Shown here in pieces: positions 16,261 through 58,593 of a stretch of 64,000 bases of DNA. The DNA is from Myxococcota bacterium. GTDB taxonomy: Bacteria; Myxococcota; SpSt-1050. Each line of letters begins with the position of its first letter. The first letter of the stretch is position 1. The notes beneath the pieces are model-generated. The model was not told where the DNA came from. It saw only the letters and a list, made by a program, of their open reading frames with translations, and ran no database searches. Position numbers and translations under genes: made by a program. Location of the stretch: the NCBI GenBank assembly GCA_049969675.1, contig JBMFOP010000001.1, positions 22,546 to 86,545 of the forward strand. Direction: 5' to 3'.

Positions 16261-16564
16261 CACATCTGTCCAAAATAATTTTTTCATTGAAGCCATAAGA
16301 TATTTAATCTTTAAGAGGGGCTTTATATGAATATGGATTGCAGCAGTTTTTGACAAATCCTACAGATAGACCCTTTAAGACCCCACCAATTGTGCCTGAT
16401 GTAGGGAAACCAACATTGAAGGTTACAAAAGTTGGACAGCATTTAGAAGAAATTATATTGAAGAAAAGTGGGCAACCCGATCTTTAAAATGTGAATTTAT
16501 CCATACAAACCCCTTATTTTACAAATAGTTAAATTCTCAAAGGAGATTGTTTTGGACAGCAGTG
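16261..16564. mobile_element. MITE-like repeat, short (internally deleted) copy
   Basis: Ends CACATCTGTCCAAAATAA (16261-16278) and TTTTGGACAGCAGTG (16550-16564) form imperfect terminal inverted repeats. The arm is about 75% identical over about 135 bp to the arm of the 55291-56050 copy, in opposite orientation. Confidence 0.6.
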
Positions 16565-17241
16565 ATATTTAACGACTATTTTTCCCAACTTTATAACAAA
16601 AGTTATCAACTGCAAATAGAGAGAAACCTTTTGAGTAAATATAGTATTCTGGATGTGCTAATAAACATAAGTGGGAAGTTTTTAATCCACTTAATAGCGC
16701 CTGAAATAGCCAGACAAACGAGGAGATTAATAGAAAAAACAGACCATCATATTACTTAAAAATTGGGAAGTTAGGGCTTAAATTTTTCCTCTATTGCTCT
16801 GGTCTATAAAGTGTTATACAGGGCTCTCTAGAGGGATTCAGATATAATTTTATAAGCTTTTAATATGGCATAAGGTAGATTACAACAACCACAGACTTAT
16901 AAAAGTCTATTATGATAATGATATTGGCAATGATGAAATCGCGGACGATTATATAGAATCTATCTATAAATCACTGAGAGATGCAAGGTATATGAACAGG
17001 TGCTTATAGAAGATGGATATGTGCAAAAGATTTAGATGATTTTTTGTAGATACTGCCAATGAAATTAACAAACTTTTGGATTTCTTAATCGTAACTTCTT
17101 TAAGGCTTACATTAAAATTTGTGCATATGTGTCAAAATGGATATATTAAAATGTCTGGATAAAAGTGAGTAAATGTCTGTTTTTTTACTTTACTTTATTG
17201 TTTTGTTTTTTTATTTATCAGAGAGTTGTAAGGGAGTTTTT

Positions 17242-47438: not shown

Positions 47439-49361
47439 TTGAAGAAAAAATATTTATATTTAAATCTCAATCTAAATAAGAGTATAGCCTTTAAGGTATC
47501 GCTTGTGATATCTATCGCCATACTAATTATTATGGGGACTGGATTCTATTTTCTCCTTGATATGCAAAAGAAGGCTATTAAGAAAAATATTGATGATTAT
47601 TTTGCCTCCATTTATGAGATGGTTCTGGTTACAATAAAGGACCAGCATACCTTGAACGGAACACTCCCTTCAAAACAGCTACGGGATATAATGAAATCCC
47701 ACAAAGAGATTATATCTTCCAATATCACCAATTATTATGGTGTAATTAAATGGGCTTCAAATCCCTCTGATGTAGGGAAGATAAATAAACTTGTGAATGA
47801 GGTAAAGAAGGAGTGGGGAGGTGCGGATATCAGGACAGGGGTAAGGATTCTTGAAAATAAGAATGCTACTCAGATTGTTACACCAATTATGCCCGAACAG
47901 ATCTGCGTCAAATGTCATCAGGATAGAAAGGAACCCATAGGATTTTTTATTGCGGAGAGTATTAGTTTTTCAACTCTATTTAGCGACATCTATAAATTTT
48001 CTACTGTCTCGTTTCTTGTAATTCTGGATACAATTCTGGTAACAATGCTCATCCTCTCTTTAGCACTGAGGTTTTATGTAGTTAAACCCATTGATACACT
48101 TTTGAGTATGATTCAGGCTGTGGAGAAGGGGAATTTCCTCGTGAGGGCAGATATAAAGAGGGAGGATGAACTTGGTATCCTCTCTCGTGGCTTTAATAAT
48201 ATGCTCAAGAAGATTACCGACCTTATGGTCTCTCAAATGGATCAGGAGAGACAGGTTGTACAGATGCAACAGGAGTTAAAATATCGTGATGAGATAGAGG
48301 AGAAAGGGAAGAAGATTCTTGAGATTAATGCCTCACTTGAGAAGAAGTTGAATGAACTTTCGCTCTTAATCGAACTCTCATCAGCCCTCAATTCAAGCCT
48401 TGAACTGGATGATATACTTGAATCTCTGGTAAATATCCTGCACAGGAAGATGAACTATCTTGGACTTGTGGTCTTACTATGGGATGAGGAAGAGCGGGTA
48501 TTGAGAGTAAAGAGGTCATTTGGTTATGACGATGGAGAGCAGCTTAAAAATATGGTCTTTAAGCCCGGTGAGGGGATTTCCGGGCTTGTCGTTCAGAGCG
48601 GAGAGATGATTCTTGTAAATGATACAACGCATGACCCGAGATTCCTGCATTATAAAGGGAAGAAGATCATTGATGGCTCATTTTTGTCCATTCCTATGAA
48701 GTTTAAGGGTGAGACCATTGGTGTGTTAAACTTTTCAAGGCCCGGGATATATATGTTTAAGGATGATGAGATAGAGCTCTTAAAGGCTGTTGCCAATCAG
48801 GCGGCGATTGCGATCAAGAATGCTGAATTGTATCAGAAGACATTAGAACTCTCCATCACCGATGCCCTTACAGGTTTATATAACAGAAGATATTTTTTCA
48901 GGAGGTTTGCAGAGGTTGTAGAGAATTCAATTCGCTATAATACAGGTTTCTCAATCCTTATGATTGATATAGACCATTTTAAGAATTTTAATGATACATA
49001 CGGACATAAGGCTGGGGATGAGATATTAAAGAGGGTGGCATATATATTCTCTTCAAGAGTCAGGAAGGTGGATATTGTAGCACGATATGGTGGAGAAGAA
49101 TTCATAATTCTCTTCCCGAGGATGAAGAAGAAAGAGGCTTATGACCTTGCAGAGAAACTCCGTAAGAATGTGGAACTCTCAAAATTTGTTTTTGAGGGAC
49201 AACCTATAGGACAGAAGATTACAATATCTATTGGTGTTGCCACTTTCCCCGACGATAGCAAGGATGCCAGGGAGATAGTAGATCTGGCAGATAAGGCACT
49301 TTATAAGGCAAAGAGAAATGGTAGAAATCAGACAGTCTCATATGAACAGACCAATGAATGA
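47439..49361 (+). CDS. sensor diguanylate cyclase: TM, periplasmic CXXCH heme-c-type sensor, TM, HAMP, coiled coil, GAF, GGDEF
   Basis: TM1 at about 17-40. Periplasmic domain with CVKCH, possibly a DUF3365/Tll0287-like heme-binding sensor. TM2 at about 190-212. HAMP LGILSRGFNNM. GAF domain. GGDEF with RYGGEEF and an intact RxxD I-site region. Confidence 0.8.
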   Translation: MKKKYLYLNLNLNKSIAFKVSLVISIAILIIMGTGFYFLLDMQKKAIKKNIDDYFASIYEMVLVTIKDQHTLNGTLPSKQLRDIMKSHKEIISSNITNYYGVIKWASNPSDVGKINKLVNEVKKEWGGADIRTGVRILENKNATQIVTPIMPEQICVKCHQDRKEPIGFFIAESISFSTLFSDIYKFSTVSFLVILDTILVTMLILSLALRFYVVKPIDTLLSMIQAVEKGNFLVRADIKREDELGILSRGFNNMLKKITDLMVSQMDQERQVVQMQQELKYRDEIEEKGKKILEINASLEKKLNELSLLIELSSALNSSLELDDILESLVNILHRKMNYLGLVVLLWDEEERVLRVKRSFGYDDGEQLKNMVFKPGEGISGLVVQSGEMILVNDTTHDPRFLHYKGKKIIDGSFLSIPMKFKGETIGVLNFSRPGIYMFKDDEIELLKAVANQAAIAIKNAELYQKTLELSITDALTGLYNRRYFFRRFAEVVENSIRYNTGFSILMIDIDHFKNFNDTYGHKAGDEILKRVAYIFSSRVRKVDIVARYGGEEFIILFPRMKKKEAYDLAEKLRKNVELSKFVFEGQPIGQKITISIGVATFPDDSKDAREIVDLADKALYKAKRNGRNQTVSYEQTNE

Positions 49362-50416
49362 ATAAATTCATTCCCAGAACATTATTTGGTTATATCTTTC
49401 AGAGGGCTGCAATCTCATTTTTTCTATTCCTGATGATTATCTCCACAATACTCTTGCTGGTCTCTTTTATACAATATGCGGACATCTTCCTTATTGCCAA
49501 TATCTCATCCGGAGATATCCTTAAGATAATACTCCTGATGTTCCCTCTCTCATTTGAGTTTGCCATCCCTCTTTCAGTAGTTGCTTCTTTGATGTATGTT
49601 TTTTATGTAATGGAGGTAAAGAATGAGGTCCTTGCCATTGAACTGACAGGGTTCAATAGATATATTTTTGCATATCCCGTCCTCTTATTTGCAACTCTAA
49701 TATTTTTAGTAAATTTGATTTTTTCACTTCTTCTTTTTCCTCTATCTATATCCAGAATTAAGGCACAGGCTATGAACTATACAGGGAGCAATATCAAAAA
49801 TGCGCTTATAGATGGAAGGATAAATGATGATATACCTGATACAGTTATATATTTCAAATCCAGAGATGAGAATGATAGATATAAGAATCTCTATGTCTTT
49901 CAGAGAGGGGAGAGCGGTGAACATCTGCTGATTTATTCAAAAGAGGCAAGATTTGATTTTGCTAAAGAGGATCTATCAATTGGGATAAATATGAATAATG
50001 GAAAAATTATTGCCCCGGATGGCAATTCTATCAGGAATATCATCTTTGAGGAAGGGAGATTGAGTATAGATGTGGCAGATATAATAGAAAAGAAGGTTAA
50101 AAATATAAGAGGATTTTATGGGAACAATACCCCAAAGGAGAAGAGTATAGTTCTATATGATGGGATTTATCTATCTCTGGTAAATCTCTGGATATGCTTG
50201 ATTGGAGTAATAATATTCATCGGTAGATTAGATATAAATCATTTTATTAGATACATATTGTTTTTCCTCTTTACTGGTTTATATTATATTGGATTCAGAG
50301 GGTATCATTCAGCATTTGAGAGCGGATTTATGAGGGTCTCGGAGGCATTCTTCTCTATACTATTTTTGATGTCTCTATTTCTGATATTGATAAAGAGGAT
50401 GTTTGTGCTCAGATGA
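49358..50416 (+). CDS. lptF: LptF/LptG family LPS export permease
   Basis: MNKFIPRTLFGYIFQ N-terminus. 6 TMS with a large periplasmic insert (YjgP/YjgQ family). ATGA overlap with the DGC gene stop. Confidence 0.7.
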   Translation: MNKFIPRTLFGYIFQRAAISFFLFLMIISTILLLVSFIQYADIFLIANISSGDILKIILLMFPLSFEFAIPLSVVASLMYVFYVMEVKNEVLAIELTGFNRYIFAYPVLLFATLIFLVNLIFSLLLFPLSISRIKAQAMNYTGSNIKNALIDGRINDDIPDTVIYFKSRDENDRYKNLYVFQRGESGEHLLIYSKEARFDFAKEDLSIGINMNNGKIIAPDGNSIRNIIFEEGRLSIDVADIIEKKVKNIRGFYGNNTPKEKSIVLYDGIYLSLVNLWICLIGVIIFIGRLDINHFIRYILFFLFTGLYYIGFRGYHSAFESGFMRVSEAFFSILFLMSLFLILIKRMFVLR

Positions 50417-53950: not shown

Positions 53951-55258
53951 ATGATTAAACCCGATGTATATATCAAAGACCTTGAGAGATATATTGATAA
54001 AGAGGTTACATTGTGTGGATGGGTCTACAATATCAGGTCTTCAGGTAAGGTAAGATTTATCCTTGTTAGAGATGGCACAGGTTTTATTCAGTGTGTGGTA
54101 ACTCCAAAAGGGGTCTCTCAGGAGAAGTTTGAACGGTCTGATAGAATTCCTCAGGAGAGCTCAATAATCGTCAGAGGGAAGGTCAGGAAGGAGGCACGGG
54201 CACCTTATTGTGGTTATGAGATTGAACTGTCAGACTATGAGGTAGTCTCAACAGTCACTCAGGAATATCCGATAGCATTAAAAGAGCACGGAGTCGATTT
54301 TCTGATGAATCATAGACACCTCTGGATTCGTTCATATCAACAGAGTATGATTCTCAGAATAAGGGCAACAATTATAAAGGCTATCAGGGACTACTTTGAT
54401 TCCAATGGATTTACTCTGGTAGATGCCCCCATCTTTACACCAAATGCCTGTGAAGGGACATCCACGCTCTTTGAGACCAATTACTTTGGAACAAAGGCGT
54501 ATCTAACTCAATCAGGGCAGCTCTATATGGAGGCGGCTGCCATGGCTTTGGGGAAGGTCTACTGCTTTGGCCCAACATTTAGAGCTGAGAAGAGCAAGAC
54601 AAGAAGGCATCTAACCGAATTCTGGATGGTAGAACCTGAGATGGCATACTTTGACCTTGAGGACGATATGGAAGTGGCTGAGGGGCTCGTATCGTATATT
54701 ATAGAGACAGTCCTTTCAAAACATGAAAAGGAGCTCATTGCCCTTGAAAGAGATGTTGATTCCCTGAGGAATGCGGCAAAAAAGCCCTTTTATAGGATAA
54801 GATATATGGAGGCATTGGAGGTAATTAAAAAGGGTGGGCTGGAGATAAAATATGGGGATGATTTTGGTGGTGATGAAGAGACAGTTCTCACAAAACAGTT
54901 TGATAAACCGGTATTTGTTACTCATTACCCGATTGAGATCAAGGCTTTTTATATGAAGAGGGACCCGAAGGATCAGACGCTCGCTCTAAATATGGATCTC
55001 CTTGCCCCAGAGGGATATGGAGAGATTATCGGTGGAGGGCAGAGGGAAGACAATCTGGATATATTACTTGATTCAATTAAGAAGAACAACCTCCCTCAGA
55101 ATGTATTTGAGTGGTATCTGGATATAAGGAGATATGGCTCTGTGCCACACTCGGGATTTGGGCTTGGGGTTGAGAGGACAGTCGCATATATTTGTGGCCT
55201 GCACCATGTGAGAGAGACTATCCCATTTCCGAGATTGATGGACCGCCTCAGTCCGTAA
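53951..55258 (+). CDS. asnS: class IIb aminoacyl-tRNA synthetase, asparagine--tRNA ligase-like (could be archaeal-type AspRS)
   Basis: N-terminal OB fold [31 protein letters not shown]. Motif 2 [24 protein letters not shown]. Motif 3 [13 protein letters not shown]. The 435-aa size fits AsnRS. Confidence 0.65.
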
Positions 55259-55290
55259 ATATAAATATTTTTTATTTTTTTACTTTTACT

Positions 55291-56050
55291 CACTGCTGTC
55301 CAGAATAATCTGTTTAACAAGTTTACTATTTGTAAAATAAGGTATTTTGTACAGGTAAATCCATATTTTCGAATCGGATTTCACCCTTTTCTTCCATACA
55401 CTATCTAATAAAATGCTGTCCAACTTAAATAACCCTAATGTTAGTTGCTCTACATCAGACACAACAGGACTGTCTGCCGTCGCACAGACAGGTAAAGTCT
55501 CATAATGTTTATTTGTTCATTCACATAAATTTTTGTATAGTAATTCTTATTTGAAAGCCCGACAAAGTTAAAATCAAGCCAATAATCACTTTTTTATATG
55601 TCCATTTGAATGACTTTGCTTTGTGTTCATCGTTGTATTTAATGACCTTCCCCATATTTTCAATGAATATCTCTTCATTCAACTCAATTCTCTTGCCTTT
55701 CTGCTTATAGAAATTTTCTACTTTCTATAATAAATATTTTTTCATTAAAGCAGCATATGGTCTTAAACACTTTTTTCACTATAATATTTTTAACACGCCC
55801 CGGTGGTGACTTTTTTCTAATGGAGTAAATAGATAATCCATAAACATTGCTACAAATTGCTCCCAACAATTAAATCTATTTGCCCCATTATCAACCCTTG
55901 TCTCTCTTACCGCCTTATAAAACATATTTATAATCAATATTTGTAGAATTTATTAAAAATTAAATCAATTCATATTCATATAAATCCTTAACTCTTCAAA
56001 ATTCAATATCTAAAAGGTCTAAAGTTAAAATTTATTCTGGACAGATATGT
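55291..56050. mobile_element. MITE-like non-autonomous element, long copy (about 760 bp) with about 18-bp imperfect TIRs
   Basis: Left end CACTGCTGTCCAGAATAA (55291-55308). Right end TTATTCTGGACAGATATG (56033-56050), perfect over the 13-bp core CTGTCCAGAATAA. The interior is AT-rich and non-coding, with an internal AAATGCTGTCCAACTT sub-repeat at 55404. Homologous to the 16261-16564 copy. Confidence 0.65.
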
Positions 56051-56099
56051 ACATAACTTAAATTTTGTTTTACATCGCGCAAATTTTAATATAGTATAT

Positions 56100-57347
56100 G
56101 TGGTTATGAACCGATTATTTAAATTTTTATTTACCAGTTTAGTCTTATCAGCAATTTCCTGTTCGGTTGATTACTCCCTGCTAAATAATAGACAATGCGA
56201 CAGTGAAGGTAGATGTGTCGCTGGATATGTATGTGATAGAGCGACTATGACCTGTGTCAGAGAAGGCTCTATGCCCGGAAATGATGCTGGGACCCTGCCC
56301 GATATCATAAGAGATGAAATCTCAATTTTGGATACAGAAATGCCAGATTCAGAAGAAGATGCTGGCTGCAGACCTACCAACAATGGGATAGAGATATGCG
56401 ATGGGATAGACAACAACTGTGATGGCAGAACGGATGAGAACTATGTATGCGGAAGCTGTACCTTAACTAATTCCATTACAGAGCAATGCAATGAATCTAC
56501 AAAGTGCGATAAATGCTTTATAGTGAATGGTGAAAAATATAGATGTGTCTCTGTGGACGGTTTAGATTTTAACTGGCGTAAAGAATCTGAATTGATTTGC
56601 GATTCTTCAAAATCTATAAAGGCAATAAAATGTGAAAACATCTGTCAATTGTGTGATGGAAATAAATTTTCTGACCCATTTATCATTCAGAATGAATCCT
56701 GCGATGGAAAAGACAACAATTGCGATGGAAAAATAGATGAGGGAGATATATGTCCCACCAATAATATATGTGTAGGTGGAAAGTGTATAGAAAGACCATG
56801 TCAGAAGAAGGAGGATTGCCCCCCGGAGAAAGTCTGTAAAGAGAATAAATGTCAATCCTGCACAGAAGTCGTGGATGATTCGCTGTGCGGTTCAGGTAAG
56901 ATATGTATCAATGGTGCCTGCATAGATGGCGATTGCCATCAGAATACTGATTGTTCTGGTGGTATCTGTGTATCCAATAAATGTTGTACAGGGTGTTGTG
57001 CAAAAAAGGATGATTGTCCAGCAGAACTTGTTTGCAAAAAGGGACTAAATGAACAAATCGGAAATTGTGAGAGTTGCACTGATATAATAGATGACCTGTT
57101 ATGTGGTTTTGGTTATATCTGTGAAGGCAATAAATGTATAAAAGGTGAGTGTCATCCTAATATTGGATGTCTCCTTGGGAAGATATGTGTCAACTATAAC
57201 TGCTGCAATCCCGGACCGACCTGCTGTAATAAGGATGGTGACTGTAAATCAAATATGACCTGCACCCAGAATCATACCTGTGATTGTAAGCCACTCTTTG
57301 GAGATTGCAACAATAAATATGATGATGGCTGCGAAAAAGACCTTTGA
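56100..57347 (+). CDS. secreted cysteine-rich repeat protein with MopE-like CDGxDNNCDG metal-binding-type motifs
   Basis: Signal peptide MVMNRLFKFLFTSLVLSAISCS. About 70 Cys. CDGIDNNCDGRTDE and CDGKDNNCDGKIDE motifs. Repeated CxxGxCI(x)xxC modules. Ends at a TGA that is followed in frame by more of the same repeats. Confidence 0.6.
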   Translation: MVMNRLFKFLFTSLVLSAISCSVDYSLLNNRQCDSEGRCVAGYVCDRATMTCVREGSMPGNDAGTLPDIIRDEISILDTEMPDSEEDAGCRPTNNGIEICDGIDNNCDGRTDENYVCGSCTLTNSITEQCNESTKCDKCFIVNGEKYRCVSVDGLDFNWRKESELICDSSKSIKAIKCENICQLCDGNKFSDPFIIQNESCDGKDNNCDGKIDEGDICPTNNICVGGKCIERPCQKKEDCPPEKVCKENKCQSCTEVVDDSLCGSGKICINGACIDGDCHQNTDCSGGICVSNKCCTGCCAKKDDCPAELVCKKGLNEQIGNCESCTDIIDDLLCGFGYICEGNKCIKGECHPNIGCLLGKICVNYNCCNPGPTCCNKDGDCKSNMTCTQNHTCDCKPLFGDCNNKYDDGCEKDL

Positions 57348-57737
57348 AGTGATATCAACAATTGTGGAGTATGTAATCAAAAATGTGTCTTTCCCAATGC
57401 AGACCCCGAGTGTGTAAACGGTAGATGTCTGATTAAGAATTGCAAACCAAATTTTAAGGACTGCAATCAAAAACCAGAGGACGGTTGTGAAATAGACATT
57501 TCAAAGGATATACTTAATTGTGGTGATTGTAATTCACCCTGTTCAGCGGATAATGCAACGGTAAAATGTGAGCAGTCAAAATGTGTAATATCTGCCTGTA
57601 ATCTCGGATTTGCAGATTGCGATGGGAATTATAATAATGGTTGCGAAATAAATACAAATACTGATAGTAAAAACTGCGGAGACTGCGGAAATAAATGTAA
57701 ACCAAATGAAATCTGCAAAAATGGCCAATGTAACTGA
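57348..57737 (+). pseudogene. in-frame 129-codon continuation of the Cys-rich repeat protein beyond a TGA, with no start codon
   Basis: Translation SDINNCGVCNQKC...LNCGDCNSPC...KNCGDCGNKCKPNEICKNGQCN continues the DCxxxxxxGCE-spacer-NCGxC repeat periodicity across the TGA at 57345-57347. It contains no ATG, GTG or TTG start. Readthrough, recoding, a nonsense mutation or a sequencing error are all possible. Confidence 0.45.
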
Positions 57738-58593
57738 AGAAGAGATTTCCTCTCCATTTAATTTCTCATATCCCATATCTCTTCCATCTCTAAAAATCTC
57801 TCTATCAGATTTAGGTCAGATAAACCCAATATTGATAGCAGATACAGAGAGTGAAGTCTTCATTATTGATGGTTTTAGAAGGTATAATATATTAAAACAG
57901 CTCGGGGCAGATCCCATATTTTTCAAAGTAAGACCCTTACATATAGAGAATGCCCTTAATGTATATTTAGCAATCAATCTCGAATCCCGTCGTTTTAATA
58001 TTATTGAAAAGATTAGAATATGTAGATTTGTCATTTCAAATAAGATTAATATATCTGAACAGACTCTTCAAAAGGCTGGACTTGGAGATATTTATAAGAA
58101 TAGTGGTCTTTATGAATTTATTGAGAATCTCAATGACAATCTAAAAGATATCATTGTGGAGAAGCGGCTTACAACCTCATTGATAGAAAGGCTTTTAAAA
58201 ATTGGCTATACAAATTCAGAGAAGATACTCCTTTATGCAAGAGATAAATCTCTAACTCATCAACAGACAAGGGAGGTTATAACTGATTTATATCTACTTA
58301 CAATGAAAGGTGTAGATATTGGTCAAATTATTAACGCACTCACAGAAATTTCATTTGAAGAACTAAAAAGGAAAATAAGGGGAATCAAAAATCCATTGCT
58401 TCAAAAAATGGAAGATGAATTTAAGGATTTTATAAAAGACATTAAGAATCTGTCAATTCATCCACCAGAAAATTTTGAAGGGAATAATTACATATTGGAG
58501 GGTAGATTCAGAGATGAGAATGACCTTGAACAGATCTTAAAGGAGATATCAGAGATTAAAGAGAGATGGAAGAGGAATCCAATATTAAAATAG
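57706..58593 (+). CDS. ParB/Srx-like nuclease domain protein
   Basis: The N-terminus ...ILIADTESEVFIIDGFRRYNILKQLGADPI matches the ParB N-terminal (ParBc) DGxxR motif region. No obvious HTH. The start overlaps the end of the Cys-rich extension. The 3' end overlaps the radical SAM gene by 28 nt. Confidence 0.5.
   Translation: MKSAKMANVTEEEISSPFNFSYPISLPSLKISLSDLGQINPILIADTESEVFIIDGFRRYNILKQLGADPIFFKVRPLHIENALNVYLAINLESRRFNIIEKIRICRFVISNKINISEQTLQKAGLGDIYKNSGLYEFIENLNDNLKDIIVEKRLTTSLIERLLKIGYTNSEKILLYARDKSLTHQQTREVITDLYLLTMKGVDIGQIINALTEISFEELKRKIRGIKNPLLQKMEDEFKDFIKDIKNLSIHPPENFEGNNYILEGRFRDENDLEQILKEISEIKERWKRNPILK

Follow-up and report, generated by a model that had tools for sequence, protein, structure and literature searches.

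A gene for a cysteine-rich, MopE-related protein was found to be interrupted by an in-frame TGA stop codon in a 64,000 nucleotide stretch of DNA from a Myxococcota bacterium (contig JBMFOP010000001.1 of assembly GCA_049969675.1), which is referred to here as the window. Most probably, this stop codon is a recent, lineage-specific single-base nonsense mutation by which a serine codon of a MopE-related lipoprotein gene was converted into a stop. About 14 relatives encode a protein that continues across the site without interruption, and the three closest siblings all carry the serine codon TCA. Hence, of the four explanations listed side by side, with no preference stated, in a first-pass annotation of this DNA, nonsense mutation and sequencing error both gained support, and we regard the former as the better account.

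The open reading frame and its premature stop codon

Translation of positions 56100 to 57737 in one frame gave 415 codons, a TGA at 57345-57347, 129 sense codons and a second TGA at 57735-57737. The ORF listed on the forward strand extends from 56106 to 57347 and is terminated by the first of these TGA codons; therefore, the original description of an in-frame TGA followed by 129 more codons was correct. The start had been placed at position 56100, where an alternative GTG is located. This assignment was replaced by the ATG at 56106, which is likely the true start judging from the sibling proteins P0001, P0122 and P0123, all of which begin there (MNRLF...). Coordinates of all features are compiled in Table 1.

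The cysteine-rich protein encoded before the first TGA ends with ...DCNNKYDDGCEKDL, the 129-codon extension behind it begins with SDINNCGVCNQKC and ends with KNGQCN. Not one ATG, GTG or TTG occurs among these 129 codons, as had been stated for the downstream stretch. From the base composition, an open run of at least 129 codons after a stop is expected with a frequency of about 1e-4, and the run is thus not a product of chance; among the stop-to-stop intervals of all six frames, in which real genes are counted, 66 of 6949 (0.9%) reach this length.

The repeat DC-x6-GCE-x8-NCGxC was present in three copies with a period of 52 residues, starting at amino acids 400, 452 and 504. The stop codon takes the place of the fourth spacer residue after GCE, a position occupied by S in repeat 2 and by N in repeat 3, in agreement with the earlier observation that S or N is found there in the other repeats. 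A periodic array running across the stop had also been reported. The pattern indeed continues beyond the TGA; the first spacing proved to be x6 and not x7, and of the first copy the stop is preceded by the DC-x6-GCE half alone. Hence, the array straddles the stop codon and is not well established upstream of it.

Table 1. Features of the interrupted gene and its neighbours (positions refer to the window)
Feature	Position	Strand	Remarks and basis
Truncated coding part, 413 codons; MopE-related Cys-rich protein, probably lipid-anchored and secreted	56106..57344	+	ORF list, translation
End of signal peptide, lipobox-like AIS/C followed by SVD	56151..56171	+	Alignment, motif coordinates
MopE-type putative metal-binding motif CDGIDNNCDGRTDE	56397..56438	+	Pfam, motif coordinates
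Second MopE-type motif CDGKDNNCDGKIDE	56700..56741	+	Pfam, motif coordinates
First DC-x6-GCE-x8-NCGxC repeat core, interrupted by the stop	57303..57374	+	Motif coordinates
Premature TGA	57345..57347	+	G at 57346 is C in the siblings
Orphaned 3' part, 129 codons and natural TGA, in frame, 21 Cys, still intact	57348..57737	+	Aligns end to end with all orthologs
Second repeat core	57459..57530	+	Motif coordinates
Third repeat core	57615..57686	+	Motif coordinates
Next gene, ParB-N-like	57706..58593	+	Start overlaps natural 3' end of the full-length gene
Spore-photoproduct-lyase-like (SPL-like) radical SAM protein, third gene of the cassette	58566..59621	+	Profile matches, synteny

Relatives and the codon at the site

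A homologue search was performed with the fused product, in which both parts are read through the TGA. Full-length matches were obtained with P0001 (99% identity, 543 aa, 100% coverage) and with P0002-P0011 (60-65% identity, 536-569 aa). Opposite the stop codon, seven of these 11 relatives have S, three have K and one has Q; neither Cys nor TGA was found at this site among the aligned homologues. Altogether, about 14 relatives with lengths of 536-569 aa are uninterrupted, namely three siblings with 98-99% identity and 10-11 orthologs with 60-65% identity. The 90% cluster of P0001 comprises four members: the 543-aa proteins P0001, P0122 (MGC9043146.1) and P0123 (MGB9599169.1), and the 413-aa product of the window itself. 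The latter is identical to the NCBI entry MGC8926358.1, named 'MAG: MopE-related protein [Myxococcota bacterium]' and encoded on a contig of 111,737 bp.

The gene was then compared at the DNA level with three sibling contigs, L001 (ENA ERZ3623746), L085 (GCA_049971375.1) and L086 (GCA_049699215.1). Gapless alignment revealed 19, 30 and 32 differences, respectively, over 1632 positions, corresponding to 98.0-98.8% identity across the gene. Codon 414 is TGA in the window as compared to TCA (Ser) in all three siblings; the more distant orthologs carry TCA (L082), CAA (L083) or AAA (L084). Therefore, the ancestral state at this site is a sense codon. The G at position 57346 is unique to the window and amounts to one C-to-G transversion relative to the siblings; the stop is thus the derived state, separated by a single mutational step from the sense codon that the nearest relatives carry, and the orthologs are continuous across the site.

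An alignment with orthologs had already been proposed in the first-pass annotation, along with the prospect that they might terminate at the equivalent position and lack the downstream repeats. The alignment showed a sense residue at the site in all aligned relatives; orthologs that stop there were not seen, and the downstream repeats turned out to be a conserved part of the protein.

The TGA allele was seen in one record only, MGC8926358.1. An exact-product search of the contig index with the ORFs of the window returned no independent copy of this allele, and neither allele turned up again when JGI metagenome contigs were scanned with IUPAC patterns covering the site. A scan of species-representative genomes, in which matches to the generic MopE pattern predominated, yielded only distant Myxococcota paralogs (≤43% identity) and no orthologs.

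Age of the lesion and selection on the gene

Ten base changes within the gene are unique to the window. Four of them are synonymous, five fall into three nonsynonymous codons, and one creates the stop; nine are located at or before the stop codon. The only unique change in the 3' part (57380) is synonymous, which indicates that the lesion is young. Comparison of the window with L001 gave dN/dS values of 0.28 upstream and 0.15 downstream of the stop, both based on small numbers, and the remnant appears to be free, so far, of relaxed constraint or decay. Across the family, the C-terminal part is, as judged from substitution patterns, clearly under purifying selection: dN/dS was about 0.06 for L001 as compared to L082, and of the 22 Cys columns from C403 to the end 21 are invariant, the remaining one, C539, being at least 90% conserved. 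Apparently, the remnant looks like coding sequence because it lost its coding role only very recently or, should the G be an error, because it never lost it.

This latter reading, according to which the TGA is an artefact, introduced by base calling or polishing or taken into the consensus of a metagenome-assembled genome (MAG) from a minority variant of the population, and the organism carries TCA and makes the full 543-aa protein, deserves to be weighed carefully but seems rather unlikely to us. A difference of one base from three siblings that all have TCA, a perfectly intact remnant and an allele restricted to one assembly are what such an error would leave behind; moreover, the assemblies are of MAG grade, and L001, with a coverage of 3.3, carries a gene-breaking 2-nt insertion of its own. 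However, no frameshift is private to the window in the 8.4 kb over which it aligns with L001, and its other differences look like true strain divergence: the SNPs form a mosaic, and all eight changes between the glnA genes of the window and L001 are synonymous. Over the 8.4 kb, 73 mismatches were counted between these two, and substitution errors per base are generally far rarer than the true divergence of about 0.5-1% observed here. The 10 lineage-specific changes in the gene likewise represent real divergence, and one nonsense hit among them is unremarkable.

A nonsense mutation has to face a different objection, since purifying selection on a conserved gene normally removes such an allele. 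Its presence in the consensus thus needs recency, drift or tolerance. Otherwise, the event is of an ordinary and known kind, a single-base premature stop in a conserved gene. The gene shares with nonsense-mutated genes, or incipient pseudogenes, the stop created by one base, the intact relatives and a remnant that is in frame, startless and undecayed; no difference in kind was found, and at NCBI the 413-aa product is annotated like any other protein, with no pseudogene flag. We suggest that MGC8926358.1 (413 aa) be regarded as a truncated or pseudogenised version of the 543-aa protein. The import of this correction hardly extends beyond annotation hygiene; it also illustrates neatly how the puzzle of a stop inside a repeat array can be settled by a single near-identical sibling genome.

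The SNPs of the four strains showed a mosaic pattern, for example at 56665-56687, where the window is identical to L085, and L001 to L086. Furthermore, dS between the sibling clades was 0.115-0.13 for the C-terminal 129 codons as compared to 0.025 upstream, an approximately fivefold difference. The SNP mosaic and the contrast in dS suggest that recombination may have occurred within the gene.

Properties of the protein and expected effects of the truncation

The intact gene normally encodes a Cys-rich, MopE-related secreted protein of about 543 aa, probably anchored to a lipid. At the lipobox-like site, C21, S22 and D24 are invariant in all orthologs and V23 is at least 90% conserved; the protein is accordingly predicted to be a lipoprotein. 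The Pfam family PF11617 represents a putative metal-binding motif, CDGxDNDCDGxxDE, which is common in Myxococcota. This family was matched in two stretches with 31.8 bits against a gathering cut-off of 27, which places the protein among the MopE-related proteins; the sources of the orthologs also name them 'MopE-related protein'. The likeness is confined to this short putative metal-binding motif, whereas the rest of the protein, including its middle, is built of other Cys-rich modules. Methylococcus MopE itself showed no detectable homology to the whole protein.

The C-terminal 129-137 residues align, spanning the stop, to positions 30-145 of the 145-position model NF041328 (MXAN_6577-like). 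The remnant reached 41.7 bits (1e-10) and intact P0001 33.5 bits, in the latter case with a match from residue 407 to 543 that crosses site 414. These scores of 33-42 bits are far under the cut-off of 100 bits and hence indicate a shared module, not membership of the subfamily. The remnant also exceeded the cut-off of PF04885 (Stig1-like), with 25.4 bits (2e-5) as compared to 24.1; the Stig1 proteins are a plant family, and the resemblance to them consists in the cysteine spacing pattern.

An AlphaFold2 model of intact P0001 (mean pLDDT 74.5, pTM 0.34) predicted small beta-hairpin disulfide modules arranged in a string. Comparison of this model with the PDB by Foldseek gave only generic likeness of the EGF/TNFR/cystine-knot type, with one match at E ≤0.001 and a TM of about 0.1, and a sequence search of the PDB gave no match. 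A literature search brought up only general articles on Cys-rich surface proteins of myxobacteria, TraA for example, and none on the protein's own family.

If C was replaced by G at 57346, so that TCA became TGA at codon 414, translation would end there and give rise to a 413-aa product. This product would lack the array formed at the C-terminus by three disulfide modules of 52 residues, the first of them being cut in half. It contains 58 Cys, i.e. 57 past the lipobox Cys, which is an odd number, as compared to 78 past the lipobox Cys in the intact protein; 21 are lost. The odd number of Cys together with the loss of the C-terminal modules would probably leave the product impaired, at least in its C-terminal function, and the Cys count makes misfolding or loss of this function likely. 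Furthermore, the end of the gene normally overlaps with the ParB-like gene behind it, and ribosomes that terminate at the TGA would do so 359 nt before the latter begins. Both the ParB-like and the SPL-like gene might therefore be expressed less, owing to polarity or weaker coupling.

There is a slim chance that the allele is real and yet not simply dead, with low-level UGA readthrough supplying some full-length protein beside the 413-aa form, or with the allele being a selected strain-level variant of a fast-diversifying, recombining surface lipoprotein. Slimmer still is the chance that the truncation as such is tolerated or favoured and no neutral or harmful accident, as a strain-level loss of C-terminal modules from a surface protein that would allow escape, for example, from phages, predators or recognition. 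The gene does show the highest substitution density among the genes compared with L001 (19 in 1632 nt, many of them nonsynonymous), and the four-strain mosaic and the elevated C-terminal dS are consistent with recombination and diversification. However, the stop occurs in one strain of four with no independent recurrence, it halves a module and does not coincide with a module boundary, and the approximately 14 relatives all keep the C-terminal array and its Cys. The reading we prefer is a recent nonsense mutation with a probably impaired product.

Genetic code and recoding

TGA terminates 22 of the 54 ORFs of at least 150 aa in the window. In the GGDEF gene (47439-49361) and the LptF gene (49358-50416), TGA follows directly after the end of the Pfam domain and forms an ATGA overlap with the next gene; the Ham1 gene ends with TGA at 199 aa, a length equal to that of its orthologs. 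The share of long ORFs closed by TGA identifies it as an ordinary stop codon here and excludes a reassigned code, as the first-pass annotation had also concluded. An alternative code in which TGA specifies an amino acid (tables 4 or 25) was rejected, as TGA terminates ordinary genes in the window.

Recoding of this one TGA, be it as selenocysteine with the aid of a SECIS element or through readthrough of a programmed or leaky kind, would still allow synthesis of the full-length protein. The downstream frame is open, startless and in register with the repeats, and UGA is the leakiest bacterial stop codon. With bacterial selenoprotein genes, which combine UGA with a bSECIS hairpin, the gene has in common an in-frame TGA inside a conserved reading frame. 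Selenocysteine normally takes the place of Cys, but the site lies in a spacer flanked by Cys residues, and its column contains Ser, Lys or Gln, with neither Cys nor selenocysteine in homologs; the nearest siblings have TCA.

A scan for a SECIS-like hairpin behind the stop, as had been proposed earlier, was carried out on the 80 nt starting from the TGA. A stable stem-loop was not found in this segment; its minimum free energy was -8.2 kcal/mol as compared to -11.4 ± 2.7 for shuffled sequences (z = +1.2), and 186 of 200 shuffles folded at least as well. The 45 nt after the site contain 10 variable positions among siblings that are otherwise 98-99% identical, and hence no RNA element is conserved at this place. 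ARAGORN detected no tRNA-Sec in the 64-kb window. An Rfam search of the whole window at the gathering threshold returned only two tRNAs, and the sole match within 57200-57800 at E values up to 10 was STAXI with E = 2.8, i.e. noise. Selenocysteine insertion and programmed readthrough, both put forward initially, are thus unsupported, and we consider recoding to have a next to negligible probability; lists of candidate recoding or selenoprotein sites should not include this in-frame TGA.

Neighbouring genes and the wider window

In every relative examined, the start of the ParB-N-like gene is located 17-32 nt before the natural stop of the upstream gene, and the SPL-like gene then follows. The three genes form a cassette encoding a Cys-rich MopE-related lipoprotein, a ParB-N-like protein (~290 aa) and an SPL-like radical SAM protein (~350 aa). 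This cassette is kept in L082, L083, L084, L085 and L001, even where ortholog identity is 60-65% and the flanks differ. The SPL-like gene is intact at 351 aa in the window and in L085; in L001 (12283-13340) it is split into pieces of 79 aa and 243 aa by an insertion of the two nucleotides AG, which corresponds to a site after window position 58698. Two of the four close strains, the window and L001, hence carry different gene-breaking lesions within the same three-gene cassette.

Alignment of the three sibling contigs with the window begins only at about position 55600. Upstream of this position, genes for FTHFS, FolD and MTHFR are found in the siblings, as compared to AsnRS (53951-55258) in the window. 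The intergenic region of 847 nt (55259-56105) shares dispersed repeats of 110-180 nt with 16261-16565 at 73-78% identity, and copies also exist in the siblings. At the breakpoint near 55600, either the DNA was rearranged or the assembly was joined, in both cases at a dispersed intergenic repeat.

The G+C content of the window ranges from about 34% to 46% and is mostly 37-40%; NCBI labels the source and its relatives as Myxococcota or Deltaproteobacteria MAGs. Such a G+C content is unusually low for Myxococcota, and the lineage is therefore probably a deep, uncultured one.
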